IMG/VR virus record: IMGVR_UViG_3300021964_000016
From: a virus
DNA length: 64,000 bases
Strand: one strand, 5' to 3'
Part shown: positions 7,906 to 26,178 of the stretch, piece by piece
Position numbering within the stretch: position 1 is the stretch's first letter
Layout of the letters: each line of letters starts with the position of its first letter
Position numbers and translations under genes: made by a program
The notes under the pieces: model-generated
What the model was told of the DNA's origin: nothing
The model's database searches: none
Seen by the model: only the letters and a program-made list of their open reading frames with translations

Positions 7906-8060
7906 TATCGATTAACCTGCTTCTAACGATATTTATTTATATAAATTAGTTGGAGACAATCTTACTCAGAAGAATTATAATTTTTCGAATATTTTTGCGC
8001 CACTATCGATTACCCTGCTTCTAACGATATTTATTTATATATTTAGTTGGAGACAATCTT
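7897..8060. repeat. Tandem ~66-bp direct repeat (7897-7963 and 7995-8060), each copy with a TATAAATA late promoter (7934-7941, 8032-8039)
   Basis: ttgcgcca(t/c)tatcgatta(a/c)cctgcttctaacgatatttatttatata..ttagttggagacaatctt seen twice. Confidence 0.85.
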
Positions 8061-11000
8061 TTTCTTTTTTGATAAAATTGAGGAAACACCATAGGAACTA
8101 GTAGAATTAAACTCTATTGTACCAGTATCTTTCCTCGATTTAATTATAGTTGTTCTTGGTTTCTGTACCGTGAAACTTCCAGCAAGAGGAATAAGCGCAG
8201 AATTTCTGGTAATCGTTACAGTAGCAACCGTAGAAACATCCTGTGCTTCTAGTATGCCAACAGCATTTATACTCCTTCGGGCAACAGAGGTAACAGAAGA
8301 TTCTCCTGCCTCTAAAACAACAGAAGAAGAGATAACCCTTTCAGCAGCACAAACTACTTGAACATCGACGACTGAAAGTGAACCGGAAGCAACGAGAACA
8401 CGCTCAGAAACACCAGAGACAACTGAAGTTCCAGATATTACAGAATTTCCACCTTGGTCGTCAATTTCTCTTTCTGCATTACCAGCAACAGATTCTTCAC
8501 TCTGTATGTTACCAGAGGCGACCAGAACACGCTCGGCGATGCCAGATAAATTTGCTTCTTGTGACGTTAATGCGCCAGAAGAAACCAGAACACGTTCGGC
8601 AACACCAGAAACGGTTACATTTCCAGAGATAACAGAGTTGCCACCGTTATCGTCTATCTCACGTTCAGCGTTACCAGCAACAGACTCTTCGCTCTGGATG
8701 TTACCAGAAGCAACTAGGACACGTTCAGAAATACCAGAAACAGTTACATCACCAGAAACGACAGAGTTGCCTCCTTGGTCGTCAATTTCTCTTTCTGCAT
8801 TACCTGCTACCGACTCTTCACTCTGAATGTTGCCCGATCCAGTAATAATACGTTCAGATACACCTATTATTATCGAGTCAGAAGCAAATATCGAATTACC
8901 TTCGTTATCGTCTATCTCGCGTTCTGCATTACCTGCTACCGACTCTTCACTCTGAATGTTGCCCGATCCAGTAATAATACGTTCAGAAACACCTGTTATG
9001 AGAGAATCTGTGCTTACAAGACCGTTACCACCTTGGTCATCAACAACTCTCTCTGCATTACCTGCTACTGATTCTTCACTCTGAATGTTTCCAGAAGCAA
9101 CCAATACACGTTCGGCAATACCGGAAACTAAGGATGAATCAGAAACTAATGTTCCTCTACCAACTTTTGTGAGTTCTGCTTCGCCAGATACTACTGCCTC
9201 TTGAGACGCTACTGCGCCAGAAGCAACAATGGTGCGTTCAGCAACACCCAATATTGTTGAGACACCAACTGACAAGGCATTGCCACCTTGGTCATCAATT
9301 TCGCGTTCTGCATTACCTGCTACCGACTCTTCGCTTTGTATGTTTCCAGAAGCAACTAGGACACGTTCAGAGATACCAGAAACAACTTCTTCTTGAGATG
9401 CCAGCGAACCAGAGGCAACCAATATGCGTTCAGCAATACCAGAAACTGTTACGTCGCCCGAAGAAATAGAATTACCTTCATTATCGTCTATCTCACGTTC
9501 TGCATTACCTGCTACTGATTCTTCGCTCTGGATGTTACCAGAAGCAACTAGGACACGTTCAGAAATACCAGAAACAATAGAAGTTGTTACTGTTAGAGAA
9601 TTGCCACCTTGGTCATCTATCTCACGTTCTGCAATACCAGAAACCAGAGAAGCAGTAACTGTAAGGGAATTACCACCTTGGTCATCTATCTCACGTTCGG
9701 CATTACCTGCTACCGACTCTTCACTCTGAATGTTGCCCGATCCAGTAATAGTTCTTTCAGAGACACCTACTATTATCGAGTCAGAAGCAAATATCGAATT
9801 ACCTTCGTTATCGTCTATCTCGCGTTCTGCATTACCAGCGACAGATTCTTCGCTTTGGATGTTTCCAGAGGCGACAAGAACACGCTCGGAAATACCGAAG
9901 AAGACTTCTTCTTGGGATATTAATACACCAGAGGCGACCAATACCCGTTCAGCAACGCCAGAAACAGTTACATCACCAGAAACGACAGAGTTGCCTCCTT
10001 GGTCATCGATTTCTCTTTCTGCATTACCAGCAACAGATTCTTCACTCTGAATATTACCCGAAGCAACTAGGACACGTCCAGAGATACCAGAAACAAGGGA
10101 GTCAGTAACACCGAGAGAATTACCACCTTGGTCGTCTATCTCTCGTTCAGCATTACCAGAAACAAAAGAACTTGTTACTATTAGGGAATTGCCACCTTGG
10201 TCATCGATTTCTCTTTCTGCATTACCAGCGACAGATTCTTCACTCTGTATGTTACCAGAGGCAACGAGAACACGCTCAGAAACACCAGAGACAACTGAAG
10301 TTCCAGATACTAAGGAATTTCCACCTTGGTCATCAACAACTCTCTCTGCATTACCAGCAACAGATTCTTCGCCCTGTAAAGAACCTGAAGCAACCAACAC
10401 ACGTTCAGAAACACCAGAGACAACTGAAGTTCCAGATACTAAGGAATTGCCACCTTGATCATCAATTTCGCGTTCTGCATTACCTGCTACTGATTCTTCA
10501 CTCTGAAGAACACCTGAAGCAACCAACACACGCTCGGATACACCAGAAACAACTGCTTCTTGAGAAGTTAAAGTGCCAGAAGATACCAAAGACCTTTCAG
10601 CAATGGCGGAAACAGTGGAAGATCCGGAAACAAGAGAATTACCACCTTGATCGTCCACTTCACGTTCTGCATTACCTGCTACTGATTCTTCACCTTGTAG
10701 AGCACCAGAAGCAACCAACACACGTTCAGAGACGCCAGAGACAACTGAAGTTCCAGATACTAAGGAATTTCCACCTTGGTCGTCGATTTCTCTTTCTGCA
10801 TTACCAGCGACAGATTCTTCACTCTGTATGTTACCAGAAGCAACTAGCACACGCTCGGATACACCAGAGACAACTGCTTCTTGAGAAGTTAAAGTGCCAG
10901 AAGATACCAAAGACCTTTCAGCAATGGCGGAAATAGTGGAAGATCCGGAAACAAGAGCATTGCCGCCTTGGTCGTCCACAACTCTCTCAGCAACACCAGA

Positions 11001-12920
11001 TATGACAGAAACACCAGTTACTAGTGCGTTTCCACCTTGGTCATTGATTTCTCTTTCTGATGTGCCAGAGACAACCACTTCCTGAGTTGTTAAAGCACCA
11101 GAACTTGTGATTACACGTTCAGCGACACCAGATACAGTTTCTTCTTGAGATACTAATGTTCCGGAAGTAACCAGAACACGCTCTGCTATACCAGATACAG
11201 TTTCTTCTTGAGATACTAAAACCCCAGAACTTGTTACTATACGTTCAGAGACGCCAGAGATAACAGAAGATTGAGCAGACAAAGTTCCCGAAGGAACCAT
11301 AATTCTTTCACCAACGCCATCTACAATTACATTGTCGTCAGACTCAACGCCAGAAACAACAGAAACAATTGATCGTTCAGCGTCACCTGCGACTACGGCG
11401 ATACCAACTTCGTCAGCAGTTAGTTCTGCTTCTATTACAATCGTTTTTACAATAGATACAGATATATCTGAATTATCTGCTTTAGGTGAACCAGAAGAAT
11501 TTATGGTCCTTTCAGCAACTCCAGATACTATACTGTCTGAGGTTACTAACGAGACCGAAGAAGCGATAACACGCTCTGCTATACCAGATACGGTTACATC
11601 TTGCGATACTAAAACCCCAGAACTTGTTACTATACGTTCAGCGACACCAGATACAGTTTCTTCTTGAGATACTAATGCACCAGAACTTGTGATTACACGT
11701 TCAGCGACACCAGATACAGTTTCTTCTTGAGATACTAATGCACCAGAACTTGTGATTACACGTTCAGCGACACCAGATACAGTTTCTTCTTGAGATACTA
11801 ATGTTCCGGAAGCAACCAGAATACGCTCTGCTATACCAGATACGGTTACATTTTGAGACACTAATGTGCTAGTGCTGTTAATTACTCTTTCTGCAACACC
11901 AGATGCTATAGAATCTGTAACAACGAGAGAATTACCGCTTTGGTCGTCTATCTCTCGTTCACCAACGCCAGCAACGGATTCTTCACTCTGAAGAACACCT
12001 GAAGCAACCAACACACGTTCAGAGACACCAGAAACAACTGCTTCTTGAGAAGTTAAAGTGCCAGAAGATACCAAAGACCTTTCAGCAATGGCGGAAACAG
12101 TGGAAGATCCGGAAACAAGAGAATTGCCACCGTTATCGTCTATCTCGCGTTCTGCATTACCAGCGACAGATTCTTCACCTTGTAGGGCACCAGAAGCAAC
12201 CAATACACGTTCAGAAATACCATCTACTGTAGATGGCGAATCAACTAAAGTTCCAGTGCTATTAACGATCCGTTCGGCAACAGCAGATACAGTAGAAGAA
12301 CCAGAGGCAACAGAGTTTCCTCCTTGATCATCAATTTCTCTCTCACCAATTCCAGCAACAGATTCTTCACTTTGTATGTTACCAGAGGCAACGAGTACAC
12401 GTTCAGAAACGCCAGATACAGTTGAAGCACCTGTAGAGAGAGCATTACCACCTTGGTCGTCGATCTCTCGTTCTGCGTTACCAGCAACAGATTCTTCACC
12501 TTGAAGAGCACCAGAACCAGTAATAACACGTTCAGAAACGCCAGAAAGGTCGGAAGTTTGAGATACTAGAATACCAGTACTGACAATTATTCGTTCAGCA
12601 ACAGCAGATACAGAAGAGGAACCAGAGGCAACGTTGTTGCCGCCTTGGTCGTCGATCTCTCGTTCTGCATTACCAGCAATAGATTCTTCGCCTTGAAGAG
12701 CACCAGAAGCAACTAGGACACGTTCAGAGATACCAGAAACAGAAGAATTTTGAGACTGTAAAGAGCCAGAAGCAATTGATGCGACCAATAATGTAGCAAC
12801 ACCAGAAACGCTAGAAGATTGCGACTGTAGTTCTACGGTGAGGGTGTTTATGTCACCGATATATCCATCAGCAACATACCCGTCTACTACATATTTGTCT
12901 AGGGTGGCAGAGGAGGCCAA
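8043..12920 (-). CDS. Giant acidic Ser/Val/Gly-rich repeat protein (1625 aa, ~21-aa period), probable fibre/whisker
   Basis: TTG start; dozens of SG(V/I)(A/S)ER... and AGNAEREIDDQGGN modules; located in fibre cluster. Confidence 0.65.
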   Translation of the reverse strand: MASSATLDKYVVDGYVADGYIGDINTLTVELQSQSSSVSGVATLLVASIASGSLQSQNSSVSGISERVLVASGALQGEESIAGNAEREIDDQGGNNVASGSSSVSAVAERIIVSTGILVSQTSDLSGVSERVITGSGALQGEESVAGNAEREIDDQGGNALSTGASTVSGVSERVLVASGNIQSEESVAGIGEREIDDQGGNSVASGSSTVSAVAERIVNSTGTLVDSPSTVDGISERVLVASGALQGEESVAGNAEREIDDNGGNSLVSGSSTVSAIAERSLVSSGTLTSQEAVVSGVSERVLVASGVLQSEESVAGVGEREIDDQSGNSLVVTDSIASGVAERVINSTSTLVSQNVTVSGIAERILVASGTLVSQEETVSGVAERVITSSGALVSQEETVSGVAERVITSSGALVSQEETVSGVAERIVTSSGVLVSQDVTVSGIAERVIASSVSLVTSDSIVSGVAERTINSSGSPKADNSDISVSIVKTIVIEAELTADEVGIAVVAGDAERSIVSVVSGVESDDNVIVDGVGERIMVPSGTLSAQSSVISGVSERIVTSSGVLVSQEETVSGIAERVLVTSGTLVSQEETVSGVAERVITSSGALTTQEVVVSGTSEREINDQGGNALVTGVSVISGVAERVVDDQGGNALVSGSSTISAIAERSLVSSGTLTSQEAVVSGVSERVLVASGNIQSEESVAGNAEREIDDQGGNSLVSGTSVVSGVSERVLVASGALQGEESVAGNAEREVDDQGGNSLVSGSSTVSAIAERSLVSSGTLTSQEAVVSGVSERVLVASGVLQSEESVAGNAEREIDDQGGNSLVSGTSVVSGVSERVLVASGSLQGEESVAGNAERVVDDQGGNSLVSGTSVVSGVSERVLVASGNIQSEESVAGNAEREIDDQGGNSLIVTSSFVSGNAEREIDDQGGNSLGVTDSLVSGISGRVLVASGNIQSEESVAGNAEREIDDQGGNSVVSGDVTVSGVAERVLVASGVLISQEEVFFGISERVLVASGNIQSEESVAGNAEREIDDNEGNSIFASDSIIVGVSERTITGSGNIQSEESVAGNAEREIDDQGGNSLTVTASLVSGIAEREIDDQGGNSLTVTTSIVSGISERVLVASGNIQSEESVAGNAEREIDDNEGNSISSGDVTVSGIAERILVASGSLASQEEVVSGISERVLVASGNIQSEESVAGNAEREIDDQGGNALSVGVSTILGVAERTIVASGAVASQEAVVSGEAELTKVGRGTLVSDSSLVSGIAERVLVASGNIQSEESVAGNAERVVDDQGGNGLVSTDSLITGVSERIITGSGNIQSEESVAGNAEREIDDNEGNSIFASDSIIIGVSERIITGSGNIQSEESVAGNAEREIDDQGGNSVVSGDVTVSGISERVLVASGNIQSEESVAGNAEREIDDNGGNSVISGNVTVSGVAERVLVSSGALTSQEANLSGIAERVLVASGNIQSEESVAGNAEREIDDQGGNSVISGTSVVSGVSERVLVASGSLSVVDVQVVCAAERVISSSVVLEAGESSVTSVARRSINAVGILEAQDVSTVATVTITRNSALIPLAGSFTVQKPRTTIIKSRKDTGTIEFNSTSSYGVSSILSKKKKIVSN

Positions 12921-12954: not shown

Positions 12955-13626
12955 TTAGGGGGTTTCAATTTCCTCGATTAGCATTTCTGACATTTTTCTA
13001 CCAGTTTCATCACAATTAAACATGAATGCCATTGTACATCTCAAAGAATTAGTACGAGCGGCATGGTACAGTAACTTATCAGGTTCATCATATGTACCAT
13101 AATATCCATACTTACATTGCCAACCTTGCACGTCTGGTATTATAATGTGTTCTTTTGTCAATGGATCTATATGCTCCCATTGCCCGTCGCCAGTTTCGGA
13201 CCAAGTAAAGATAATATTGTATCCAGGAGCATTAGCATTATTATGCCAACCTATAAACCCACCAGGAGGATAAATGGCACTCAAAGCGCGATTTCTTGCT
13301 CCAGACCAAGAACAAAGAGCAGAAACAGAATTTTCAATCTCTTCTAATATTCGGATCTTTTCTGACGCGTCATTGTATTCAAACTTTCCTACTTGAATAT
13401 CAACTCCTCTTAGCATCTCAGGATACCCATCATGCTCTCTACCTTTCCAAACAATGTGATCAAGATAATCTTTGTTCAACCAATCTTCTGCGTTTTCTTC
13501 TCTAGGAATGTTCCTAAGTTTATCCAGATCTATAGACTGTACCGTATTTGATATTGAATGTAAGATACCTTGCAAAGTTTCATTAGCGATATTTACTGGG
13601 TTCATTCCAGGTTTTAAAAAACTCAT
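12955..13626 (-). CDS. Cupin / 2OG-Fe(II)-oxygenase-like protein (223 aa)
   Basis: YPPGGFIGWHNN...LYHAART..R: HxN...H...R jelly-roll pattern. Confidence 0.5.
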   Translation of the reverse strand: MSFLKPGMNPVNIANETLQGILHSISNTVQSIDLDKLRNIPREENAEDWLNKDYLDHIVWKGREHDGYPEMLRGVDIQVGKFEYNDASEKIRILEEIENSVSALCSWSGARNRALSAIYPPGGFIGWHNNANAPGYNIIFTWSETGDGQWEHIDPLTKEHIIIPDVQGWQCKYGYYGTYDEPDKLLYHAARTNSLRCTMAFMFNCDETGRKMSEMLIEEIETP

Positions 13627-13627
13627 A

Positions 13628-14380
13628 TCAAATGATCTCTATGTCAGATATTTTTCTAGATGCTTTGGCGGATAAATGTATCAACGAAGTTCCCTCTGGC
13701 ATTGGGTGGGTGTGTCTGTTAAGGGAAGTCCAATAGTTCCACCTTAAATCTTCCTCAAAAATGCCAACCTTTAGTTCTTTGTACTTAGGTTCTTTCTCAA
13801 CCAACCACCAAAGAGTGAACTGATCCCAGCATGCTAGTTCTCTGGGGTAATTTTCGGTGTCCCAAGTAACCCCATCTTCTTTGGTCGGCCACCATTTATT
13901 AGCATGTTGTTTGACGTATAATTCGTACCAATCTTTCATAAACTCCATGATAATGTCAGTTTTTTTATACAAACAAACAGCACCGCAAAGAGTGAAAGTT
14001 CCTCCAGGAAATTCCGTGTCCATAAATATATGCCATCTATCTCTAGGCAACCCTGTGAACACCATATCATTATCACCAAGTTCTTCAAAAACATTGGCAA
14101 TATTTTCACTGATACATGTCATATCGGCGTCGATATAAAAAGTGTTATCATAGGGGGTTTGTGACATACCCCAGAGTTTTGCCCTGTAGTGGTTATCGCA
14201 AATAATTAAATGATCTGCTTCCTCTGCCCTAGAGTCTAAGAACCTCTCTTCGGTAACAAGACAAATGTTTGCTTCTGGGTAATAATCTTTTATATCAGAA
14301 ATAAGATTGGTTGCCCAAGAATAATATATTGGTTCGTTTGACGCAACGATCAGATATCCATTATTTTGATTCGGTTTCAT
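13628..14380 (-). CDS. GT-A fold glycosyltransferase (GT8-like, 250 aa)
   Basis: TPYDNTFYIDAD DxD motif, WDQ motif, 'RWNY...IH' C-terminal pattern. Confidence 0.75.
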   Translation of the reverse strand: MKPNQNNGYLIVASNEPIYYSWATNLISDIKDYYPEANICLVTEERFLDSRAEEADHLIICDNHYRAKLWGMSQTPYDNTFYIDADMTCISENIANVFEELGDNDMVFTGLPRDRWHIFMDTEFPGGTFTLCGAVCLYKKTDIIMEFMKDWYELYVKQHANKWWPTKEDGVTWDTENYPRELACWDQFTLWWLVEKEPKYKELKVGIFEEDLRWNYWTSLNRHTHPMPEGTSLIHLSAKASRKISDIEII

Positions 14381-14852
14381 TCAAAGCAAATCCAATACCA
14401 AGTTCTTCCATCATAATAAGTTGAGCATATATGTTCAACTCTACTATATTTTTAGATCTGCGCATTTTACTTTTCAGATCTTTATTTTTGGTATTTTTTA
14501 TTTCGTCAATTTCGAGCATTTTTATTTTAGCATCGAAGAGTTTTTCAAGTTCTCTTGCTTGATCTTCTGCCTTTCTACGATGATGCTCTTCGTCTTTCTC
14601 TTGCGCTTTGCGCTCTCTTCGCTCTTTTGTGTTTTGATCGATCTTTTCTTCGCCGACCTGATCAAGAAGTTCTTCGTAATCTGGATTTGGGTCTCCATCT
14701 ACATCAAACTTCCTCACAGTCAAGACCTGAGAAATTTCTCTACCTTGCGTATCTGTGATCACGAGAATTGCTTCAGCTCGATCTTTACTCTCATCGTGCC
14801 AAAAAGCATTGTCTAACCATTTTCTACTGCTATATGCCATAATATTCTCCAA
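14361..14852 (-). CDS. Hypothetical protein, possible fibre assembly chaperone (163 aa or ~158 aa from MAYSS)
   Basis: Charged coiled-coil; directly downstream of two fibre paralogues. Confidence 0.5.
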   Translation of the reverse strand: MENIMAYSSRKWLDNAFWHDESKDRAEAILVITDTQGREISQVLTVRKFDVDGDPNPDYEELLDQVGEEKIDQNTKERRERKAQEKDEEHHRRKAEDQARELEKLFDAKIKMLEIDEIKNTKNKDLKSKMRRSKNIVELNIYAQLIMMEELGIGFALNETESK

Positions 14853-14886: not shown

Positions 14887-17322
14887 TTAAGTTTCAGACA
14901 CCCTACAATATAGAGTGTATGTTTCTATCGTCTCAGTTGCAGCAACAAGGGTCTGTCCTGCAAACTGAGAAGAATAAGTATCTGAATAGTTTCTAGAACC
15001 AGAATATCCGATTGCCGAGATAAAAGTCCTTTGTCCAGTATATTGAGCAGAATAGTTACGGGAACCATCATATTGCCCAACTACTGATGCATAGTTTCTA
15101 GAACCACCGTATTGATCAACCACAGATGCATAGGTTCTAGAACCACTATAGGCACCAGAATACGTTCTTGAACCAGAATAAGCAGAAGAATAGTTTCTAG
15201 AACCAGCAAAATCTTGTGCAACTACTCTGGTTCCAGCATATTGGGCAGAATAGTTTCTAGAACCAGCAAAATCTTGTGCAACTACTCTGGTTCCAGCATA
15301 TTGGGCAGAGTAGTTTCTAGTTCCATCATACTGCCCTGTTACAGAAGCATAGTTTCTAGAACCAGAATAAGCAGCAGCATAGTTTCTAGAACCACCATAT
15401 TGACCAACTACTGATGCATAATTTCTAGAACCGTCAAAGTTCGCTGGGTTATTTCCAGTAAAGTTTCCTGGAGTCACCACAACCAGAGGACCCAAACGTT
15501 CGCCTGCGTAGGTACCAGCATAGTTGCGAGAACCAGCAAAATTATTAGGTCTGACGCCCTGAAAGGATCTTCCGCCCAAGAAATTTTCTACTCTAACCAC
15601 CGTTGCGTCGAAAGTGCCTGGTTCTGCGGGTCCCGCTACTGGCACGACTCTCGTACCAGCGAAGTTCGCAGGACCAGAAAAGTTTGCTGGGCCAACTCCG
15701 TCGTATTTTCTTACACCAGAAAAGTTATCTACGCTGACAGATGGGTTCTTGCCACCACTATCAAATGTCACTGAAAAGTTTGCGTTATATCCTCTGGTAA
15801 AAGATCTAGATCCAAGATAATTTGTAACACCAGCGAAATTTTGCGGAACTACTCTTGTTCCCGCGAAGTTCCTAACACCCGCATAGCTTCCTGTATAAGA
15901 AACGCTGTATTGGACGTTTGGTGATATAAAATTTTGTACAATTGTGCCTGCAAAGTTGGCAGTATAATTTCTGCTTCCGCCAAAGTTATTTGCATAATAG
16001 GTAAGTACGACATTTTCTCTTGTCCCAGCATACACCGCAGGACGGGTACCAGCATATGAAGCAGCATAGTTACGGGAACCACCGTAAACTCCAGCATAGT
16101 TTCTGGAACCACCATATTGTCCAACTACTGATGCATAGTTTCTTGAACCAGAATAAGCAGCAGGTCCGTAATTACGAGAACCAGCAAAATCTTGTGCAAC
16201 TGTTCTGTCTCCAGCATATTGAGCAGAATAGTTTCTAGAACCAGCGAAATCTTGTGCAACTGTTCTGTCTCCAGCATATTGAGCAGAATAGTTACGAGAA
16301 CCATCATATTGTCCAACTACTGATGCATAGTTTCTGGAACCGCCATATTGTCCAACTACTGACGAATAGGTTCTTGAACCAGAATAAGCACCAGAATAGG
16401 TTCTGGAACCAGAATAAGCAGAAGAGTAGTTTCTAGAACCAGCAAAATCTTGTTCAACTACTCTGCTTCCAGCATATGAAGCAGCATAGTTTCTTGAACC
16501 AGCGAAGTCCCCAGTATACTGTTGTTCTGATAAAGTGTTTCTTGTATCAAGTGCTGTACCGCGAGCGACCCAAGTACCAGTCTCTCCATTACCAGTAGGA
16601 GTTTGAGAGGAAGGTAGTAATAAATAATCGCCAACACCAGAATGTTTTCTGGCATACAAAACAGATTGCCTTAGAGAAATCTTTTGATCCGAGTCAGTAA
16701 ACTCTTGAACTGCCATCGGAGAAGTAGATTTAATTTCTATAATATTATATGTTGGTGAAGAAGGTTCAACCGCTGTTTCCCTTCTCCAAATACTATAGGT
16801 ATTTGCTGTTCCGTTTGTTAATGTATCAGAAAATACATCAGAGTCCCATTTTTTCCAGTCTCCACTAGGCGCAGAAGTTGCAACTCTGAAAGAAAGTCCT
16901 GGATATTCGTTAGAGTGTAGTTCCTCTGCTACTCTGGTTGACCATCGTAGGAAAGCAACATTGCTCATTTGGTGTAAGTTACCAGAACTGTCTGCTGCTA
17001 TTGGAAGGTCGTTATAAGGAATGGCAGCAGAGTCATCTAACTGATATATTGTAGTTGTGGTAGAACCAGTAGACAAAGCACTAGCAGGATGAGTCCCTAT
17101 TGCTTCGTTATAAAATGTATCAGTGAAACTACCAATGCTGGTAGAGGAAGTTGCATTAGCAGCAACAGAACCATTATATCGACTTGACTTATTGGCGAAA
17201 GATTCAACTACCTTTATACCTGCCTGATACCCAAACCATTCTTCAGAAGCAACAGAAATCCCCTGAAAGTCTCCAGAGTCGTTTTTCAGAGCCAATGGTA
17301 TGGATTTGAAAAAGGCAGACAT
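14887..17322 (-). CDS. GSRNY-repeat fibre protein A (811 aa)
   Basis: Globular N-domain, long (F/Y)xGxRNY repeat region, C-terminal ETYTLYCRVSET. Confidence 0.7.
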   Translation of the reverse strand: MSAFFKSIPLALKNDSGDFQGISVASEEWFGYQAGIKVVESFANKSSRYNGSVAANATSSTSIGSFTDTFYNEAIGTHPASALSTGSTTTTIYQLDDSAAIPYNDLPIAADSSGNLHQMSNVAFLRWSTRVAEELHSNEYPGLSFRVATSAPSGDWKKWDSDVFSDTLTNGTANTYSIWRRETAVEPSSPTYNIIEIKSTSPMAVQEFTDSDQKISLRQSVLYARKHSGVGDYLLLPSSQTPTGNGETGTWVARGTALDTRNTLSEQQYTGDFAGSRNYAASYAGSRVVEQDFAGSRNYSSAYSGSRTYSGAYSGSRTYSSVVGQYGGSRNYASVVGQYDGSRNYSAQYAGDRTVAQDFAGSRNYSAQYAGDRTVAQDFAGSRNYGPAAYSGSRNYASVVGQYGGSRNYAGVYGGSRNYAASYAGTRPAVYAGTRENVVLTYYANNFGGSRNYTANFAGTIVQNFISPNVQYSVSYTGSYAGVRNFAGTRVVPQNFAGVTNYLGSRSFTRGYNANFSVTFDSGGKNPSVSVDNFSGVRKYDGVGPANFSGPANFAGTRVVPVAGPAEPGTFDATVVRVENFLGGRSFQGVRPNNFAGSRNYAGTYAGERLGPLVVVTPGNFTGNNPANFDGSRNYASVVGQYGGSRNYAAAYSGSRNYASVTGQYDGTRNYSAQYAGTRVVAQDFAGSRNYSAQYAGTRVVAQDFAGSRNYSSAYSGSRTYSGAYSGSRTYASVVDQYGGSRNYASVVGQYDGSRNYSAQYTGQRTFISAIGYSGSRNYSDTYSSQFAGQTLVAATETIETYTLYCRVSET

Positions 17323-17324
17323 GA

Positions 17325-19568
17325 TTAAGTTTCAGAAACTCGGCAATATAGTGTATATGTATGTATAGTTTCTGCGGTAGAGGTTAAAGTTTCGCCCGCA
17401 AATTGACTAGAAAAAGAACCTGTATATTGCCCTGTGAATTGAGTGTTATATACTCCAGAATATTGTCCTGTAAAGTTTTTTATCCTTACGCCAGCAAAGT
17501 TTCCAGGCAGAGGTCCCAAGAATTCTCCTTCATAATTTCTGACCCCAGCATAAGAACCAGAATAGGTTCTGGAACCAGAATAAGCAGCAGAATAGTTTCT
17601 AGAACCAGAGAATTGTTGTACAGCAGGTCTTTGTCCGGAAAAGGTTTGGTCTTTTTGTCTTGAACCAGCATAATTCGCAGAATAGTTTCTTGCTCCACCG
17701 TATTGTCCAACTACTGATGCATAATTTCTAGAACCGCCATATTGCGCAGAATAAGTTCTTGAACCAGAATAATCAGCAGAAAAGTTTCTAGAACCAGCGA
17801 AAGTTCCAGGAATCGTGACCAGTTCCTGTCGAGAACCTGCAAACTGGAATGGCCCGCCAGTGAACTGTGCAGATCTTGTTCCTGTGTACTGTAATACTCG
17901 GACTCCAGCAAACTGTTGGGGGTAGGCAGGGTTTGTTCTTTGTCCTGAAAATACACCAGGAACTGGTTCTAGATCAAAAACATCAACCGTTCTTTGCCCT
18001 GCGTATTGTTTGGGAGCAACACCATCATATTTAACAATGGACGAGCTGTAGTTTACAACTCTTTCTGGTTCAACTGGTGGTCCAACTACATCAACACCAA
18101 CAAAGTAATCTGTATATCCTCTGGTAAAAGAATCTTCACCAGTAAAGTTCGTAGGTCCTACAGTCCTTGTCCCAGCAAAGGGGAATTGACGACTTCCTGC
18201 GAATTGTCCTGTGAACTGTATAGATCTAGTTCCTTCAAACTGAGCAGAAATAAATTGAGTATTGGTGACCTCCCTAGTTCCTGTAAACTGTCGATCACCA
18301 TTAAAGTTTCCTGGATTGGCCACCCAAGTCTGTCTACCACCAGTATATTGGAAGGTGTAATTTCTGGAACCGCCATACTGTCCAACTACTGATGCATAGT
18401 TTCTGGAACCGCCATATTGCGCAGCATAGTTTCTTGAACCACTGTAAGCACCAGAATAGTTTCTGGAACCAGAATATCCGATTGCCGAGATAAAAGTCCT
18501 TTGTCCAATAAATTGCGCAGGAATTTGCCTAACCCCTTCGTATTGAGAAGCATAGTTCCTTGATCCATCGTATTGTCCAACTACGGATGCGTAGTTTCTG
18601 GAACCGCCAAAAGAACTACTATAACCCCTCACTCCTGTGAAATTTACTGTCCTAACCCCAGAATAATCCGCAGAGAACGGGGCAACAGAAAATCCTGTAT
18701 ACTGCCCAGTAAAATTACCAGTATACTGCCCTGTGAATTGAGTTGTAAATGTGCCCAAATACTGTAGAATTTGTGTGGTGTTTCTAGTATCCAACGCAAC
18801 ACCACGAGCAACCCAAGTACCAGTGTATCCTTGATCTGCTGGAGTTCCGTCAGAATCAGAAAGTAAAAGGTAATCGCCAAGACCAGAATTTTGCTCAGCA
18901 TGACGCATAGCAAAATATGCAGAACGAATAGCATTGGTGTCAGACATTTCCTTAATGTGGTGTTGGTCAGAATCCTTTAACTGTAATGTATAAAAGGTTG
19001 GAGGAGAGAACGGACCAGTAGTAGATCTTTTTCTGTATAGATTATACGCTGTCGAACCGTTAGTTAAAGTGTCTTCAAACACCGAGGACTTATAAGTTTC
19101 ATAAGTTCCACCAGGACTACTCCCACTCAACCTAAAGCAACCTCCATCTTCGTTAGACAGAGCATTACTCAGTAGTCTCTTCCCCCAGCGTAAAAACGAG
19201 TCCGAATCCATCTCATAAATGTCGCCGCTAGAGTCAGCAGCAACTGTTCGATGCCATTCAGCAAAAGCATCTACAGAATCACCTTTATTTTGATAAAGAG
19301 TAGTTGTGGTAGAACCTGTAGAGAGAGAACTTCCAGGGTGAGTGCCAACTGCTTCGTTATAAAACGTATCAGTATAAGTGCCTATGGAGGAATTAGTTGC
19401 ATCTGTAGAAAGGGCACCATAATATGCAGAATCTCCAACCGGAAATTCTGTTGGTATTAATAGAGAACCTTGTTGCCCATAATAACTTTCTTGCGAAGAA
19501 GGGATGGCATTCATGGCACCACCGCCTAATGAAGAAAGTGTTAGCGGTATAGATTTTACTAACGACAT
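17325..19568 (-). CDS. GSRNY-repeat fibre protein B (747 aa), paralogue of 14887-17322
   Basis: Shared KSIPL, DTFYNEA.GTHP, GTWVARG.ALDTRNT and TYTLYCRVSET motifs. Confidence 0.7.
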   Translation of the reverse strand: MSLVKSIPLTLSSLGGGAMNAIPSSQESYYGQQGSLLIPTEFPVGDSAYYGALSTDATNSSIGTYTDTFYNEAVGTHPGSSLSTGSTTTTLYQNKGDSVDAFAEWHRTVAADSSGDIYEMDSDSFLRWGKRLLSNALSNEDGGCFRLSGSSPGGTYETYKSSVFEDTLTNGSTAYNLYRKRSTTGPFSPPTFYTLQLKDSDQHHIKEMSDTNAIRSAYFAMRHAEQNSGLGDYLLLSDSDGTPADQGYTGTWVARGVALDTRNTTQILQYLGTFTTQFTGQYTGNFTGQYTGFSVAPFSADYSGVRTVNFTGVRGYSSSFGGSRNYASVVGQYDGSRNYASQYEGVRQIPAQFIGQRTFISAIGYSGSRNYSGAYSGSRNYAAQYGGSRNYASVVGQYGGSRNYTFQYTGGRQTWVANPGNFNGDRQFTGTREVTNTQFISAQFEGTRSIQFTGQFAGSRQFPFAGTRTVGPTNFTGEDSFTRGYTDYFVGVDVVGPPVEPERVVNYSSSIVKYDGVAPKQYAGQRTVDVFDLEPVPGVFSGQRTNPAYPQQFAGVRVLQYTGTRSAQFTGGPFQFAGSRQELVTIPGTFAGSRNFSADYSGSRTYSAQYGGSRNYASVVGQYGGARNYSANYAGSRQKDQTFSGQRPAVQQFSGSRNYSAAYSGSRTYSGSYAGVRNYEGEFLGPLPGNFAGVRIKNFTGQYSGVYNTQFTGQYTGSFSSQFAGETLTSTAETIHTYTLYCRVSET

Positions 19569-19581
19569 TATGAAACCTTAA

Positions 19582-20256
19582 TTATGGGTTTAGCAACACA
19601 GAACTTCTATTGTATACGTTTGGTATCCTAGCATTTACCTCGTCAATAGCACCATGAACAGTATTGGCAGAAATCTCGCTGGCGGTTATGCTTCCTGTGC
19701 CACTAGATGGAAGGGTGATGCTACCACCGACTGTCACATTACCACTATCAAATGTCATCGCAGTAACAATGCCCGATTTAATTAAAACGTTGCCTGAGTT
19801 GTTAGTCAGAGAACCCCATTCCACAGCGTTGTCTTTAAGGACAATACTGCCTCCATTAGCATCAAGATTTACATTACCTTCAGCATTCAGTATAATTTCA
19901 TTAGCAATGACCTCAAAGTCATCTGAACCTGCAGTAATATTTTTTGCAGATGCATCGAATACTGCTTCAATCTCGTTGATTGCGCCAACAACCGTCTTTG
20001 CTTGTGTGGTTAGATCAGCACCAGAACCACCACCAGATCCGTGTAAGTCTGAATCGAGTTCGTTTAATGCATCTACCAGAGTTCCAGCAGTAAAATCGTC
20101 AAGACCACGAAGAGTTTTATTGCCTCCTGGACCTATTGCTGAATCGAGATAACTTAGATCTGAATCGACATTATCGCCATAGTAATTCAGGTCTTGAATT
20201 AACTGCTGGAAAGTGTCAGTAGTTTGAAAAAGTGGGTGTGCGCTATCAAATGCCAT
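19582..20256 (-). CDS. Fibritin/whisker-like virion protein (224 aa)
   Basis: Repeated TLVDALNEL / TVVGAINEI / TVHGAIDEV segments; N-terminal TDTFQQL anchor. Confidence 0.55.
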   Translation of the reverse strand: MAFDSAHPLFQTTDTFQQLIQDLNYYGDNVDSDLSYLDSAIGPGGNKTLRGLDDFTAGTLVDALNELDSDLHGSGGGSGADLTTQAKTVVGAINEIEAVFDASAKNITAGSDDFEVIANEIILNAEGNVNLDANGGSIVLKDNAVEWGSLTNNSGNVLIKSGIVTAMTFDSGNVTVGGSITLPSSGTGSITASEISANTVHGAIDEVNARIPNVYNRSSVLLNP

Positions 20257-20488
20257 TTTGCTTTCCTACCAATCCTTTTATAAGATCTTTGAGTTCTGAG
20301 ATCTCGTCTTTAAGAGAAGCGAATTCGCTTTCTAGTTTCAATTTATTTTCTTTTTGTTCGATTGAAATCGCCTTGCGCCGTCGCGCAAGACGGATCTCCT
20401 CTTCATTGGTATTTATAACAGTTCCAGTAGCAAGGTTCTTGTATAAACTACTAGAACCTTCTACCTTTTTAAAATGCGCTTCAGACAT
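20246..20488 (-). CDS. Small conserved coiled-coil protein (80 aa)
   Basis: KVEG..SLYK...TG.VINT pattern usually found after DUF4815 genes; translationally coupled. Confidence 0.6.
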   Translation of the reverse strand: MSEAHFKKVEGSSSLYKNLATGTVINTNEEEIRLARRRKAISIEQKENKLKLESEFASLKDEISELKDLIKGLVGKQNGI

Positions 20489-23400
20489 TATATCAGAGCA
20501 ATAGCGCGAATGTTACCTAACACTGGTGCTTGACAAGTATTTGTCGATTTAAGCACAACCTTCAGTTGGAAAGAGGTGAAATCGGGAAGAGTACCTGTTT
20601 CCCCTCCGATAAGATATCGATATTCCGTAAAGGTAATATTTTCGTCATTATTCACCCAAGGTGAAGGCGCAGGATCGTTTTGAGCAGTTGCTAAAATCCA
20701 AGAATTCTCGTACATATTCTCGTCCGCTTCAGCACTTGTCCTATAGTATAGATCAAAACTTGATTGTGGAGGTCTATACATGTCCAAAAGAACTTTAATT
20801 CCGTTTGCTGCTTGTCCTAACTGCACGATCTTAGTTATGTGCTTGGAAGGAGTTGTTCCCAGCGTTGGGTGAGACTCACGGATATAACCTTCAGGACGAT
20901 TCTCAGCTACTCCTGCTGCGTCTGAATCGATCGGTTGATTGTCAATAACGTTATTCATAACGACCATACCGATACTTTGCGTATCAATTATAGGCGAAAC
21001 GTCAGAAACATACCCAGAACTCACACCTCCTCGGAAAAGGTCTCCACCAAAAGTCGACTTTTGATTAGTGGTCAACGTTGCGCTAACCACAATAGAAGGT
21101 GCTGAAAGAACAGAATCTTCTTGATTTTGATTGGCAACATATTTTGGTGTTTTAAAGAAATATGGCAAAGTATTTGGCATAGTTGTATTGGTATTGTCTA
21201 TATTAAACCGTACATCAACACCTTGTGTTTGCGAGATTTTAGAATGAGAAGTTCCGCTAACAAAACTTGCGTTGTACACAATACCAGTGTTTTCAAATTC
21301 GTGATCTTGGAAATTCAACAATGCGCGGTCAATGAAAAATCCTCTATTACTTGCAACAGAATCGCTTCCAAAAGTTCCCACTGAGGTGAAGGCACTATCG
21401 AGAGAAATATAATATCCTGCTATATCTGGATTTATGACTTTGTTCGCGGAATCCATTATACTAGAACCAAACACACCGTTATACTTGGCCGCAGAATCCA
21501 GTCCTGTTATTGCTGCTAGGTCTCCCCAGCCAAGTCCATGCCCAAGGTGGTCTACTCGCAATCTGTTAAGATTATCTGAGTCTACACGCAAACTCGAAGC
21601 ATAGTTATGGATATGCCTTTCGAGCGGTTCATTATAAAAGTTTGCTCCACCTGTTTCTTTAAACTTCGCGGTGTAAATCCGATATGGCATGTCTTGATTT
21701 TGTTTTGGCGTCCAAGTAGAACCATTCTGAGAAAGGAATAATGAACCTTTCGATGGTTGTTTTGAAACCCTTTTAGAAGTAGAACCCAACACAAGATCAT
21801 AGGTTGTCGCAACATATGCTTCGTACTTATCGCACTCTGCTAAAAGAACAAAGGCATATTCTTCTCCTGAGCGCAAAAATACTGGTTCTTCAAACTCAAA
21901 GGTTACTGGATGAGCAAGAACAGAAGCCAAAGTTTCAGTCTGTCCTGATATAGCAGTCCTAACAGCAGCAGCAGTTTTATACACTCTGTGTTGTTCGCTG
22001 ATCACGTCTCTATCAGGAACACCACTACTTACTGTCCTTAGTTGCAATTGTAGTGGAACCTGAGTATCTGATACGCTAGGTGCGCTTCGAATAAACGTGT
22101 CAATTTTGGTTACAAAAACTCCAGGAACACCAGCACCACCGTCGACGGTGAATGTTTGTGCAAGGGGATCCCTTGGTCTCCAATCTTCGCTAACTCCAAT
22201 AAGTTCTTCACTCTCAGTAACATACTCATCTTGAACAGTAACCACCCGAGTATGCGCAAAGGTTCTTTCTCTTAATGAAATTCTTCCCCATGCGCTATAA
22301 GAAGTTGATGCACGGGACAACGCCCCATCAGGGTTATACGTTGATATGTCTAAAAGTTTAACCTGATGCGTTCCACAACGGAACTTCCAACCCATTTCAT
22401 TCAACGCATTAACAGATTTTACCGAACCATATTGTTTTGCATACTTGCGAGAATTTGCAATCCACTGATTCCATTCTTGCTGAGTGTTGAATTGCGTAGA
22501 AAGGGGAATAGGAATCACAGAATTATTAGGAATCCAGAGTTCAAAGAACAATTCTCCGTCGTTATCAGATATCAAAGTTCTTTCAGCATCGCTACCGAAT
22601 GGGTGACTTTTCAAACTTACGTTTGTTTGCGCAACTCCTCTTCTGTGATCGCCAGCAGAAATAGAAGAGTTATACTCAGTTTCTGTTCTACTTCGAACCC
22701 ACTGATTCATTTGTATTCCATTCATGTAACACCAGTAACGAGTGTTCGGGCGCATTCCTTGTGCCTTAGCAAAAATTCTTCTCTGCCTCATGAAAGGTAC
22801 TGAAAGAATAGCAACAGTTCTGTCACCAAGATCGCGAGTGAACGTTTGATCGCTGACAACCTTAGTTCTGACGCTCTGCGTGACTCGATATGTCTCTGTT
22901 CTAGTTCCACCTTGTAAGTCTACCAAATCAAACCAGTTGTCTTCAGTTTGTTGGTTATCACGACCAAGGGCAGTATTGCTAGAACCAAGGAGCGCACCAA
23001 AAAGTCCAGCAGGTCCAGTAGGTTCTGTTCTAGGGCGAGGAACCCAGCGAATAATAACAGAAGTTCTGGAATAAGTAAAAGTTCTTGGTACTAAAGGTTC
23101 ACCAATTCGACGGATTATAGTACCGCCATTAATATGCTTGTCTGGCAACCTTCGAGTATCGAACCAAATATCTCTTGATGGGTTCAAACGAAGAATACCT
23201 TCTCCCATGAAGACGTTAAATGGGTTTACATTATAATATCCAAATTCTTCATAGTTTCCAGTAGATTTCCAAGAAATCATCTCATTTTTCATACTCGTGT
23301 CTAAAACGTCTATGTAGTCTAACATAAGGTTTTCACCTTTCTTGATTATGTTAGATTTTGTTACACCACGAGAAGAATATAGATTGGCAGAGTCATAATT

Positions 23401-26178
23401 AAACCCAATATTCTCTGCTTCTAACTTACAATGCATAGTGAAGTTACCCTCATCTAAAGATGAGGTAGCAAAAGACGCATCGTCTATAAAGCTGTTGTTA
23501 ATAATTGAGGCAGTGAACGCATAACCTTTAGTGAAATCGTCTACAAAGAAACCAGTCTTGGAGCGGATATTACCGTCAGCATCAAGTTCTACGAGGTTAG
23601 ATGCTTCCTGTTCAAGAGCAGTCAAAGAAACAGTTTCTTCAAGACGAGCAACTCTTCTCTCAATATCGTGTATGTCGTTCATTTTAAACCCACGATATTG
23701 TCGACGGTTCCAGGACAGGTCAGAAGAACTCTTAGTGTTTCCTCCAAGAGCAACATCAAACAGAACCATTTCTCCCTTTTTCTCTCCTGGAGGTACTGGT
23801 TGTAAAGATTCTTCTCCTTGGTTTACTGCAACCACTGGGCGAAAATCGCCGTCATATTTCAAAACCACATGGTCTAGTCGGTGATTATAAAATTGAACAC
23901 CGTAGTTTATTTGATCGTCGTTTCTTGGCAACCTAAAACGATCTCCAGAAGTCATTGCACTAGAATCAGGATCTAGTTTTGATCGGAAGTCTAGGTAGTT
24001 GTGTAATGGATATATTCGACCGCTTTTATTAGAAACATAATTCGGAATATCGCCGTAGTCAAACCAAGTAGAATCTTCTATGTCATAAGAATTAACAGAG
24101 AAAAAGTCTCCGCCCGATCCCCAAGTAAAGTATGCGACCTTGGCTCTTATATCTGTAACGGCAGCAGCAACCCCGTCTGGGATTAATTTTACAGGTCCGT
24201 AATAATTGTCTCTTTGCCCTGGATCAAAAGCGACTTGGTGCAGAACATTTGAACCAGCACTATCACTATCGTATGCTGCAATCAAAGAAATACCATCATA
24301 CAATTCATTAGCAGTAATAGAAAGAGGATCAATAGTAAAGTCACTATCTGGCGAAGTACGAGAAAAATCGAACCAATTTTCTGAATATGTTTTAGACTTT
24401 GGTGATGGGTCATCAACGCTCACATAATAGAAAATTTCATATCGAGAAGTTGTCCCACTTAGAGTACTAATAGTAGCTGTGTTTCCAACTACTGATATTT
24501 TACCGTCAATATTCTCTACGGTATTGTTATCCTTTCTAATCGCGATCCATTGCGCCTCATCTGTAAAAGATTCGTCAGCAGCAATTGTGATAGTCACTAC
24601 ACCACCACTTGCCGTTTTACTCGTCTGTTCTTGAACAGTGAAATTATCCACACTGACTTGTTTGACCCTTCCTCCAGGGACTTCAAAAAGACTGGTATTC
24701 GTTTCTGGAGAAGTTACATAAGTCTGATTATCTTCCCTCAATGGTTTTACTGCTTTTGCAAAATCGGTAGAATCTCCGATAGCAAATACGTCTCTAAAAT
24801 TATTCGCGCCAGACATTTGTATGTCGAAAAGGTGCATTCTGTATCGAGCACTGTCTATAGCAGAACCTCTGTCGACAAGAGATTTCACTCTGGTATAACC
24901 AATAACAGCCGAATCCGCATCAAATAGAGCAATTTTCTTTTGATTTGTTATTGCGTTCTCAAAATCACTATCTAAGTTGCCCAGAGAACTATCGCCTGAA
25001 CTTAGGTTGTCAAAGGCAACGTAGTTTTTGTAAGAAACATTAATGTTTTGATCTGAGTCGGTAACAAAAGAAGTTGGTTTCGGTACAACTAAACTTTTTC
25101 CGACTTTATGCTCTAGGCGGAATCCATCTAAAAATGCTAGTGGACGCACCCCTAACTGTTCAGCAGGAATGTCATAAATCATTTGAGCACTGTCATCGCC
25201 TTCTCTAAATTGTATCTCAAAGTCGTTGACAATAAAGTTTCCATGAGTATCATGGTGGCGATGTGCTAGTCGTTTCTCAAATTGATTAAAATTGTCAGTT
25301 CCTTCTTTTATTTGTACGATTTTAGAAGCACGAACAGTTGCAAAGGAAACAAAATCTTCTGCTACTGCAACCGCGTCTCTCGTAGACAAAGTCATCTGGA
25401 TTCTATATCGATCGGCACCAGGAGCAGACAGATTAGGTCGAGTTCCTTGATTGTCGTACAAAGCATCGTCATCAGCGGTAGTTACCACATCTTGCGTTAC
25501 TTCAAACCCTACTTCTGCATCAACATAAGAACTGTATTTTGATATTGCTAGAGTTTGTTTAGGAACGTATACAAAGTGTCCTTGAACGTAAAATTCTGCT
25601 CTTTGTACAGAAAAGAGGACACCCTTTCCAGTAGAGTTTATCGCCGAACCGCTATGTTTTGTTCGAACAGTAAGACTATTACTACCGTTTACTAACGTTT
25701 CTGCATCATCAAACGTTAAAGATTCGGTTTGAACGTCTGTGGAAACACTTTGTTGATTAGCAGAGACATACCTTCCATACAAGATATGAATCGTACTCTC
25801 ACCCGCGTTATCGTCTTTCGCTTCTTGAATATAACTTATTTGAAACTTTAGTCCGCTCGTTCCTGTTTTTGATTCGCCTGTAAACTCTAACCCAATATAG
25901 TCGGCGGCATCAAGGGCAAAAGATGCGTCTGTGACGATAACATAATCAACGATGTCAGTTCCAGCACCAGATGATTTCGGAGATATAGCAGCACCATCCA
26001 TGAAGATGTTGTTTGCCATTCTGGTGATTTGAGTTTGTAAAATAGTCTGTAACTGATTGAGTTCCCTCGCTTGGAGAGCACGTCCAGAATTGAATAGAAC
26101 CTTATGGTATCCAGCACTATCTTTAAAATCGTCCCTATATGTATCAGAGAACGTTGTTGATGTAAACTGATTAGGCAT
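20488..26178 (-). CDS. Large virion structural protein, DUF4815/VrlC-like (1896 aa)
   Basis: Y.DDF...GYHKVLF.SGRALQARELNQLQTILQ N-terminus; KTGFFVDDF; RDPLAQTF; SLFLSQNGSTW; FQLKVVL..LRAIAL-type C-terminus. Confidence 0.85.
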   Translation of the reverse strand: MPNQFTSTTFSDTYRDDFKDSAGYHKVLFNSGRALQARELNQLQTILQTQITRMANNIFMDGAAISPKSSGAGTDIVDYVIVTDASFALDAADYIGLEFTGESKTGTSGLKFQISYIQEAKDDNAGESTIHILYGRYVSANQQSVSTDVQTESLTFDDAETLVNGSNSLTVRTKHSGSAINSTGKGVLFSVQRAEFYVQGHFVYVPKQTLAISKYSSYVDAEVGFEVTQDVVTTADDDALYDNQGTRPNLSAPGADRYRIQMTLSTRDAVAVAEDFVSFATVRASKIVQIKEGTDNFNQFEKRLAHRHHDTHGNFIVNDFEIQFREGDDSAQMIYDIPAEQLGVRPLAFLDGFRLEHKVGKSLVVPKPTSFVTDSDQNINVSYKNYVAFDNLSSGDSSLGNLDSDFENAITNQKKIALFDADSAVIGYTRVKSLVDRGSAIDSARYRMHLFDIQMSGANNFRDVFAIGDSTDFAKAVKPLREDNQTYVTSPETNTSLFEVPGGRVKQVSVDNFTVQEQTSKTASGGVVTITIAADESFTDEAQWIAIRKDNNTVENIDGKISVVGNTATISTLSGTTSRYEIFYYVSVDDPSPKSKTYSENWFDFSRTSPDSDFTIDPLSITANELYDGISLIAAYDSDSAGSNVLHQVAFDPGQRDNYYGPVKLIPDGVAAAVTDIRAKVAYFTWGSGGDFFSVNSYDIEDSTWFDYGDIPNYVSNKSGRIYPLHNYLDFRSKLDPDSSAMTSGDRFRLPRNDDQINYGVQFYNHRLDHVVLKYDGDFRPVVAVNQGEESLQPVPPGEKKGEMVLFDVALGGNTKSSSDLSWNRRQYRGFKMNDIHDIERRVARLEETVSLTALEQEASNLVELDADGNIRSKTGFFVDDFTKGYAFTASIINNSFIDDASFATSSLDEGNFTMHCKLEAENIGFNYDSANLYSSRGVTKSNIIKKGENLMLDYIDVLDTSMKNEMISWKSTGNYEEFGYYNVNPFNVFMGEGILRLNPSRDIWFDTRRLPDKHINGGTIIRRIGEPLVPRTFTYSRTSVIIRWVPRPRTEPTGPAGLFGALLGSSNTALGRDNQQTEDNWFDLVDLQGGTRTETYRVTQSVRTKVVSDQTFTRDLGDRTVAILSVPFMRQRRIFAKAQGMRPNTRYWCYMNGIQMNQWVRSRTETEYNSSISAGDHRRGVAQTNVSLKSHPFGSDAERTLISDNDGELFFELWIPNNSVIPIPLSTQFNTQQEWNQWIANSRKYAKQYGSVKSVNALNEMGWKFRCGTHQVKLLDISTYNPDGALSRASTSYSAWGRISLRERTFAHTRVVTVQDEYVTESEELIGVSEDWRPRDPLAQTFTVDGGAGVPGVFVTKIDTFIRSAPSVSDTQVPLQLQLRTVSSGVPDRDVISEQHRVYKTAAAVRTAISGQTETLASVLAHPVTFEFEEPVFLRSGEEYAFVLLAECDKYEAYVATTYDLVLGSTSKRVSKQPSKGSLFLSQNGSTWTPKQNQDMPYRIYTAKFKETGGANFYNEPLERHIHNYASSLRVDSDNLNRLRVDHLGHGLGWGDLAAITGLDSAAKYNGVFGSSIMDSANKVINPDIAGYYISLDSAFTSVGTFGSDSVASNRGFFIDRALLNFQDHEFENTGIVYNASFVSGTSHSKISQTQGVDVRFNIDNTNTTMPNTLPYFFKTPKYVANQNQEDSVLSAPSIVVSATLTTNQKSTFGGDLFRGGVSSGYVSDVSPIIDTQSIGMVVMNNVIDNQPIDSDAAGVAENRPEGYIRESHPTLGTTPSKHITKIVQLGQAANGIKVLLDMYRPPQSSFDLYYRTSAEADENMYENSWILATAQNDPAPSPWVNNDENITFTEYRYLIGGETGTLPDFTSFQLKVVLKSTNTCQAPVLGNIRAIALI

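Follow-up and report, generated by a model that had tools for sequence, protein, structure and literature searches.

Paralogous fibre genes of an uncultured marine T4-like phage and the predicted fold-back architecture of their products

Which hosts a phage infects is set by its tail fibres. To our knowledge, the fibres described so far are nearly all trimers of parallel chains that bind the receptor with their C-terminal end. In gp37 of T4, a long parallel shaft comes first, and the fold-back is confined to the ~200 residues that follow it. At a tiny head the chain reverses and returns to the collar, and the resulting needle, which comprises six out-and-back strands in the trimer, is held by iron-binding HxH motifs (PMC12609058). 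The needle is ~15 nm (~150 Å) long (PMC3004832), and the residues that contact the receptor, 939–955 of 1026, are internal to the sequence (PMC5221442). Here, we describe two adjacent paralogous genes, A and B, carried by a 64 000-nt stretch of viral DNA (IMG/VR record IMGVR_UViG_3300021964_000016; the whole stretch is called the window in what follows). Taken as a whole, the evidence makes it likely that both products are fold-back fibres.

On this reading, the polypeptide would leave a beta-prism-like base domain of ~260 aa, run outward as a repeat arm, turn at a short, fast-evolving segment in the middle of the sequence and return antiparallel to the outbound arm and in register with it, ending in a conserved 25-aa strand inserted in the base domain. 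As the C-terminal strand would thus be part of the base, both termini would be virion-proximal and the midpoint of the sequence would be the distal, host-facing tip, which we take to be the receptor-binding part. The fold-back topology is supported by the computed architecture, by the co-location of the termini in structure models, by mirrored co-variation of the arms and by a symmetric gradient of conservation. Pairing of the two arms is suggested by comparison of homologous sequences, and it would probably be within one chain.

Layout of the two genes and of their family

The A and B proteins are 46% identical and share one layout: an N-terminal (N) domain of ~260 aa, two arms built from (F/Y)xGxR repeats, a unique segment in mid-sequence and a conserved C-terminal strand of 25 aa. 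The genes were defined as open reading frames (ORFs) with their translations, and their parts are as follows.

14887..17322, minus strand: gene A, predicted fold-back fibre protein of 811 aa; the downstream, longer paralog
16534..17322, minus strand: A base domain, aa 1–263, ending in the conserved GTWVARG.ALDTRNT strand; beta-prism-like in the AlphaFold2 (AF2) model
15805..16533, minus strand: A N arm (predicted outbound), aa 264–506, 243 aa of 10/13-aa (F/Y)xGxR repeats
15694..15804, minus strand: A tip segment, aa 507–543 (SFTRGY ... KYDGV), unique, at the exact midpoint
14965..15693, minus strand: A C arm (predicted return), aa 544–786, 243 aa
14887..14964, minus strand: A C-terminal strand, aa 787–811 (FAGQTL...ETYTLYCRVSET), and stop codon; docks in the base in the model
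17325..19568, minus strand: gene B, paralog of 747 aa; the upstream, shorter one
18777..19568, minus strand: B base domain, aa 1–264, which aligns with the A base
18132..18776, minus strand: B N arm, aa 265–479, 215 aa
18018..18131, minus strand: B tip segment, aa 480–517 (SFTRGY ... Pro-rich loop ... KYDGV)
17403..18017, minus strand: B C arm, aa 518–722, 205 aa
17325..17402, minus strand: B C-terminal strand, aa 723–747, and stop codon

The initial annotation of this DNA, made from the sequence alone, had proposed a pair of paralogous genes with a set of named landmarks, and all of these were located. In A, GTWVARG begins at residue 249, ALDTRNT occupies 257–263, SFTRGY begins at 507, KYDGV occupies 539–543 and FAGQTL begins at 787; in B, ALDTRNT occupies 258–264, SFTRGY begins at 480, KYDGV occupies 513–517 and FAGETL begins at 723. 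The unique segment had been placed at the midpoint of the repeat region, at ~15750 in A and ~18075 in B, and measurement puts the tip centres at nt ~15747 (aa 525) and nt ~18072, respectively. The symmetric layering of repeat types described for B was also recovered: FTGQYTG-type units mark the two ends, GSRNY units the middle of the arms and Pro-rich units the neighbourhood of the tip.

The GxR motifs are spaced by 10 or 13 aa in the outer arms and irregularly, by 6–33 aa, near the midpoint; in B, a single gap of 58 aa between GxR motifs spans the tip. The repeat regions (526 aa in A and 461 aa in B) are without His, Cys and Met, are rich in Gly, Ser, Tyr, Ala, Arg and Asn, and carry net charges of +21 and +17. 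Each arm of A contains a 60-nt tandem duplication, that of the N arm at nt 16172–16303 (aa 340–384, a height of 77–121 from the base) and that of the C arm at nt 15187–15320 (aa 668–712, a height of 75–119). A 248-nt direct repeat in A, 88% identical, covers nearly equal height ranges in the two arms. At the DNA level, the base domains of A and B are 70–80% similar in two stretches (families D5 and D6). Separately, a 76-nt block that is 91% identical between its copies (family D7, peptide ...QRTFISAIGYSGSRNY...) was found at the base of the A C arm (14975–15050) and in the B N arm (18445–18520); this suggests that repeat modules may have been exchanged recently between the paralogs and between opposite arms.

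The proteins belong to a large family, nearly all of it from uncultured marine T4-like phages. A word-indexed search found at least 175 homologs of A, with E-values of 1e-30 to 0, and an exhaustive search with a short family member gave 439 clusters at 50% identity; 208 encoding loci were found in IMG/VR. The family signature, which consists of a conserved N domain closing with G.W..G..DT(R/K), then the repeat region, then (Y/F)xGxT...ETYTLY.R as the last 25 aa, is present throughout an alignment of 86 members (A, B and 84 homologs). In all 86, the N domain closes with the DTR motif, and an invariant Gly is followed by a tail of 20–22 aa that ends in ETYTLY.R or a close variant. Between these anchors, the repeat region varies from ~130 to 935 aa, with arms of ~65 to ~465 aa; the shortest members, such as P0141 and P0090, are proteins of 404–476 aa. 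In a short subfamily of 474 aa, the centre is formed by a Gly-rich YYGGF(V/I)GG turn. In the subfamily of P0226, the two arms use complementary unit types, basic TRNST-like and acidic GDF/GNF-like, which switch at matching heights and would be the protein equivalent of compensatory pairing.

Only one member was found in a deposited complete phage genome. It is a 3347-aa ORF of phage C48C1 (OQ984149, recorded as Kyanoviridae; L001 11989–22032), the sole match in INPHARED, and this phage is not mentioned in the literature searched. The ORF has the base domain and C-terminal strand of the family. Its repeats are of TR type in the first half and of GNY/GDF/GEY type in the second, and globular inserts containing Trp and His lie near the midpoint (~aa 1900) and in the C arm (~aa 2700 and ~aa 3150–3250). 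One 561-aa member from JGI (P0113) bears the source name ‘outer membrane lipoprotein SlyB’, probably a mis-annotation caused by the Gly-rich repeats. Neither A nor B matches a Pfam, PHROG or NCBIfam family. A HisZ-like Pfam match (22.8 bits against a cut-off of 27, over 15 residues) was rejected as a low-complexity artefact, and the best hit of a sequence search of the PDB was an unrelated enzyme at E = 0.11.

Structure models, matched indels and alternative chain paths

AF2 monomer models were built for A, from the 86-sequence alignment, and for P0090, a 476-aa relative that is 30% identical, from 58 sequences. In the A model, residues 1–270 have predicted local distance difference test (pLDDT) scores of 81–98, mostly >90. 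In both models, one long strand leads into the repeat region and another leads out of it: E250–272 and E784–809 in A, the latter with pLDDT 95–98, and E243–265 and E450–474 in P0090. In both, the C-terminal strand (pLDDT 92–98) is built into the N domain (>90). In the models, the N- and C-termini therefore lie together in one base domain, as the initial annotation had it, rather than far apart as in a solenoid or parallel fibre. Structure prediction, which it had put forward as a check, thus upheld the base with its C-terminal strand at pLDDT >90 but not the arms, which have pLDDT 21–49 in both models.

Comparison of the models with VIA-align aligned the base with single beta-prism domains over 113–125 residues, with Z of 5.8–7.1 and root-mean-square deviation of 3.5–3.9; the top scores were 7.0, 6.7 and 5.9 for A and 7.1, 7.0 and 6.7 for P0090, with the next matches at 4.0 or less. 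The matched structures (8b6v_A, 2qp2_A, 3tow_A and 6sb1_A) are those of Mp2Ba1/MACPF P2 proteins and the MABP domain of MVB12. As the alignments span residues 49..810 of A and 50..476 of P0090, that is, from about residue 50 to the last residues, the C-terminal strand belongs to the base domain in the models. The likeness to the MABP/MACPF-P2 beta-prism thus involves the N-terminal residues and the C-terminal strand together and appears in two family members, but sequence identity to the base is 5–14%, and the base has extra helices. According to the note that accompanies the tool, Z of ~7 is the usual best score for models without a true relative, and the beta-prism is best described as a fold-level resemblance of the models. 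Foldseek searches of the PDB and BFVD returned nothing at E ≤ 0.001, and an ESM Atlas features search with the base domain gave uninformative scores of 0.86 or less.

If the arms pair, neither should tolerate a change of length unless the other changes equally at that height. The test had been set in advance, and among homologs indels in one arm are indeed matched in the other by indels of equal length at mirrored height. The gaps in question, among close homologs, are flanked by blocks 70–90% identical and are given here as length@height in aa. Between L012 and L077, the N arm differs by +44@59, +16@142 and +39@175, and the C arm by +40@164, +16@137 and +44@42. Between L004 and P0047, the changes are +66@64 (N) and +65@71 (C); between P0023 and P0028, +20@218 (N) and +20@207 (C); between P0077 and P0079, +20@40 and +16@112 in the N arm and +15@99 and +20@33 in the C arm; and between P0094 and P0098, +20 in each arm. 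The sequences inserted in the two arms are mutually unrelated in P0023/P0028 and largely so in P0094/P0098. The matched lengths therefore reflect two separate events rather than one duplication.

An event-level test was made on phylogenetically independent pairs with gaps of at least 6 aa. For the 26 length-matched pairs of N-arm and C-arm gaps, the median misfit was 12 aa under a reflection model and 170 aa under a translation model, the one that tandem duplicates would follow; reflection was the better model for 24 of the 26 (binomial p = 1e-5). In independent pairs differing by at least 10 aa, the median share of the length change falling in the N arm was 0.49. Both arms are longer, by 75 and 66 aa, in an ortholog 62% identical to A (L002, 952 aa), where they measure 318 and 308 aa; those of A have 243 aa each. 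Arm lengths thus co-vary among homologs, contrary to the absence of correlation that would tell against a hairpin. A summary Spearman correlation of arm changes is noisy (0.65 under one classification and 0.16 under another) because many pairs differ by just 2–6 aa, and the event-level test is the robust one.

The conservation of the family is also symmetric. In both arms alike, close homologs grow less similar away from the base, with identity dropping from 0.82 there to 0.51–0.59 near the midpoint, where unaligned residues peak; the midpoint is the most variable part of the family, and the tip segment is the most divergent zone between A and its ortholog L002. In this respect, the centre of the sequence resembles the exposed and rapidly evolving end of a receptor-binding protein. 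In a scan for mirror similarity, the best axis fell 0–20 aa from the centre of the repeat region in most of the 86 homologs, regardless of their length.

Several observations weigh against the fold-back reading. The arms appear paired in neither AF2 model, and as they are effectively unmodelled, the case for pairing rests on comparative evidence. Co-variation by itself cannot distinguish pairing within a chain from pairing between chains. Part of the mirror-scan signal comes from the conserved end motifs in the outermost 40 aa, and the inner bins are only partly enriched (57%, 24%, 43% and 21% against 16% expected); reliance is therefore placed on the indel test. In that test, the 44 N-arm and 59 C-arm gaps of at least 6 aa formed only 26 pairs. 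Some close pairs show unmatched changes: P0072/P0080 differ by +50 in the N arm and −4 in the C arm, P0075/P0120 by 7 and 47, and P0080/P0068 by 3 and 28. Two metagenomic sequences, P0003 and P0004, are 100% identical to A save for deletions in one arm, of aa 669–688 (C arm, 20 aa, one copy of the 60-nt duplication) and of aa 321–397 (N arm, 77 aa); these are likely to reflect assembly collapse at near-identical DNA repeats, or they may be real population variants. Finally, a search based on Gly:Arg and aromatic:aromatic pairing gave no unique gapless residue register in A or B. The coincidences peak every 10 aa, and the order of 10- and 13-aa units implies local shifts of up to ~6 residues.

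Other chain paths have to be set against the same observations. Matched indels would fit equally well with a compact fold-back, in which the arms form half-rungs of a stacked beta-sandwich or solenoid-like rod with a rise of ~0.5 nm per 10-aa unit, so that A would be a thick rod of ~12 nm. Pentapeptide-repeat solenoids have 20 aa per turn, equal to two 10-aa units, and the low-confidence arms of the AF2 models do resemble solenoids, with matches to leucine-rich and pentapeptide repeats at Z of 2–3.3. However, those model regions have pLDDT 21–49 and Z values no better than noise, a long fibre accounts better for repeat regions as large as 935 aa and for the 3347-aa relative, and the gp37 needle, the only known fold-back part of a fibre, is extended (PMC12609058). 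A compact rod is therefore considered improbable. The parallel trimeric fibre or triple beta-helix, with the N domain at the baseplate, the C terminus distal and the C-terminal strand serving as a distal foot or folding nucleus, has in its favour that it is the common plan of phage fibres, which fold from the C terminus, and that short repeats with a Gly are reminiscent of the gp5 beta-helix and its octapeptide repeat (PMC3004832). It leaves unexplained the mirrored indels of equal length, the symmetric conservation gradient, the complementary arm types and the confident placing of the C-terminal strand in the N domain of two models, and it is the least probable of the readings considered.

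The mirrored co-variation and the presence of the C-terminal strand on the N domain are equally to be expected if two chains, or 2n chains, run head to tail without folding back, the N arm of each pairing with the C arm of another and the C-terminal strand being swapped into the base of the partner. The product would be a double-ended rod with the ‘tip’ at its centre, and both co-variation and monomer AF2 models are blind to the difference between contacts within and between chains. Against this arrangement stands the character of the midpoint, the fastest-evolving and most indel-prone part of the protein, where Gly and Pro abound and the sequence looks like a turn (GGKNP in A, GPPVEPE in B and YYGGFVGG in the 474-aa subfamily). 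Such a segment is easier to place at an exposed distal turn than in the buried middle of a rod. A globular insert lies near the midpoint of the giant relative from C48C1, and it is hard to see where on a baseplate a rod with an attachment domain at each end would sit. Chains arranged head to tail are thus very unlikely.

Shape, length and genomic setting

By analogy with the T4 gp37 needle, fold-back A and B chains would probably form a trimer with a six-stranded shaft. It is also conceivable, if rather doubtful, that the shaft has a fibrous fold of its own rather than a gp37-like six-stranded barrel. It would then be a self-paired antiparallel ribbon of hundreds of residues, possibly formed by a single chain on the pseudo-threefold beta-prism base, with register kept by the palindromic aromatic-x-G-S-R-x-aromatic unit (Gly:Arg and aromatic:aromatic pairing) and length tuned by paired insertions, as in the compensatory changes of RNA stems. 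With a rise per residue like that of gp37, the A and B fibres would be ~50 and ~45 nm long (range 45–55 nm), an estimate that uses the length of the gp37 arm. The 70–85 nm suggested by the initial annotation stands as an upper bound, for a fully extended chain at ~0.34 nm per residue.

Genes A and B probably form part of the baseplate/fibre module of their phage, an uncultured marine T4-like myovirus, and specify a pair of fibres that differ in length. The repeat region is shorter in the upstream than in the downstream paralog in each of the 17 distinct tandem pairs (the window and L002–L080); examples are 219 against 547 aa, 557 against 896 aa and, in the window, 461 against 526 aa. As the upstream paralog is always the shorter and the arm lengths of partners differ widely, the products are most likely two separate fibre sets of different reach rather than an in-register heteromer. 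As a further observation, the identity of N domains is 0.43 within a locus and, across loci, 0.38 between the paralog classes, a hint of some concerted evolution.

The window is filled by the structural module of a T4-like myovirus, with every gene on the minus strand. Hidden Markov model (HMM) searches with the window proteins identified a gp5-like hub protein, gp6, a gp9/10-N-like protein and gp8 upstream of the fibre genes. Along the module these are followed by a 1896-aa protein, a 224-aa protein, B, A, three small genes and giant fibre-like proteins, such that large fibre-like proteins flank the A/B pair on both sides. Gene order is conserved in IMG/VR loci. The immediate companions are as follows, with conservation counted over 80 IMG/VR loci that encode family members.

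12955..14852, minus strand: three small companion genes (163, 250 and 223 aa), beside family members in 70–71 of 80 loci
19582..20256, minus strand: upstream companion gene, 224 aa, conserved in 32 of 80 loci, where it separates the 1896-aa protein from the fibre genes

The proteins flanking the fibre block are of 1625 aa (8043–12920) and 1896 aa (20488–26178; phrog_358), and are syntenic with it in 10 and 61 of the 80 loci, respectively. In some loci, the three small companion genes are interleaved between the two paralogs. They match no HMM family at any threshold tried, up to E ≤ 5; a reading of them as glycosyltransferase and cupin genes has no support from any HMM library at that threshold either. 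They may have a role in fibre assembly or attachment.

Comparison with known fibres

The literature found on fibres doubling or folding back comprised the Bas63 paper (PMC12609058) and unrelated work, and no paper or solved structure with a whole-fibre fold-back design was found. The RBPseg atlas, which sets out 16 fibre classes, includes gp37-type needle tips, and a search of it by terms turned up neither fold-back nor hairpin fibres (PMC12143355). Searches of Pfam, PHROG, NCBIfam, PDB sequences and folds revealed no similarity of A or B to the collar or needle of gp37 or gp12.

Should the fold-back reading hold, a large family (439 clusters at 50% identity) would build the entire fibre out and back. 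The site of host recognition would lie in mid-sequence, so that annotation and host-range prediction based on the C terminus would look in the wrong place, and fibre length would evolve through paired indels. Structure predictors fail on the shaft, and the family would offer a natural system, readable in the sequence, for studying how register is kept in very long antiparallel beta assemblies.

The C-terminal domain of T4 gp5 and gp12 resemble the A/B proteins in their short repeats with a conserved Gly at the kink, their richness in beta structure and their place in a T4-type baseplate/fibre module (PMC3004832). They differ in that their chains are parallel, with the C terminus distal, whereas the termini of A and B are co-located in the models and the halves co-vary as mirror images. 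The claim that A and B are unlike the usual parallel trimeric fibre is borne out to this extent, but the design is not unprecedented, as the tip of T4 gp37 doubles back (PMC12609058). The A/B family would have the same doubled-back topology and tiny distal head as gp37, as judged from sequence and models, and the A/B pair recalls Bas63, which has two fibres of different length with gp37-like tips. The differences lie in the means and in the scale. The A and B repeat regions are without His, hence have no HxH motif, and use (F/Y)xGxR units instead; in gp37 only the C-terminal tip folds back, whereas in A and B the whole of the protein outside the base would do so. For the chain path proposed for A and B, the one known precedent is a miniature, the tip of the long tail fibre of T4.

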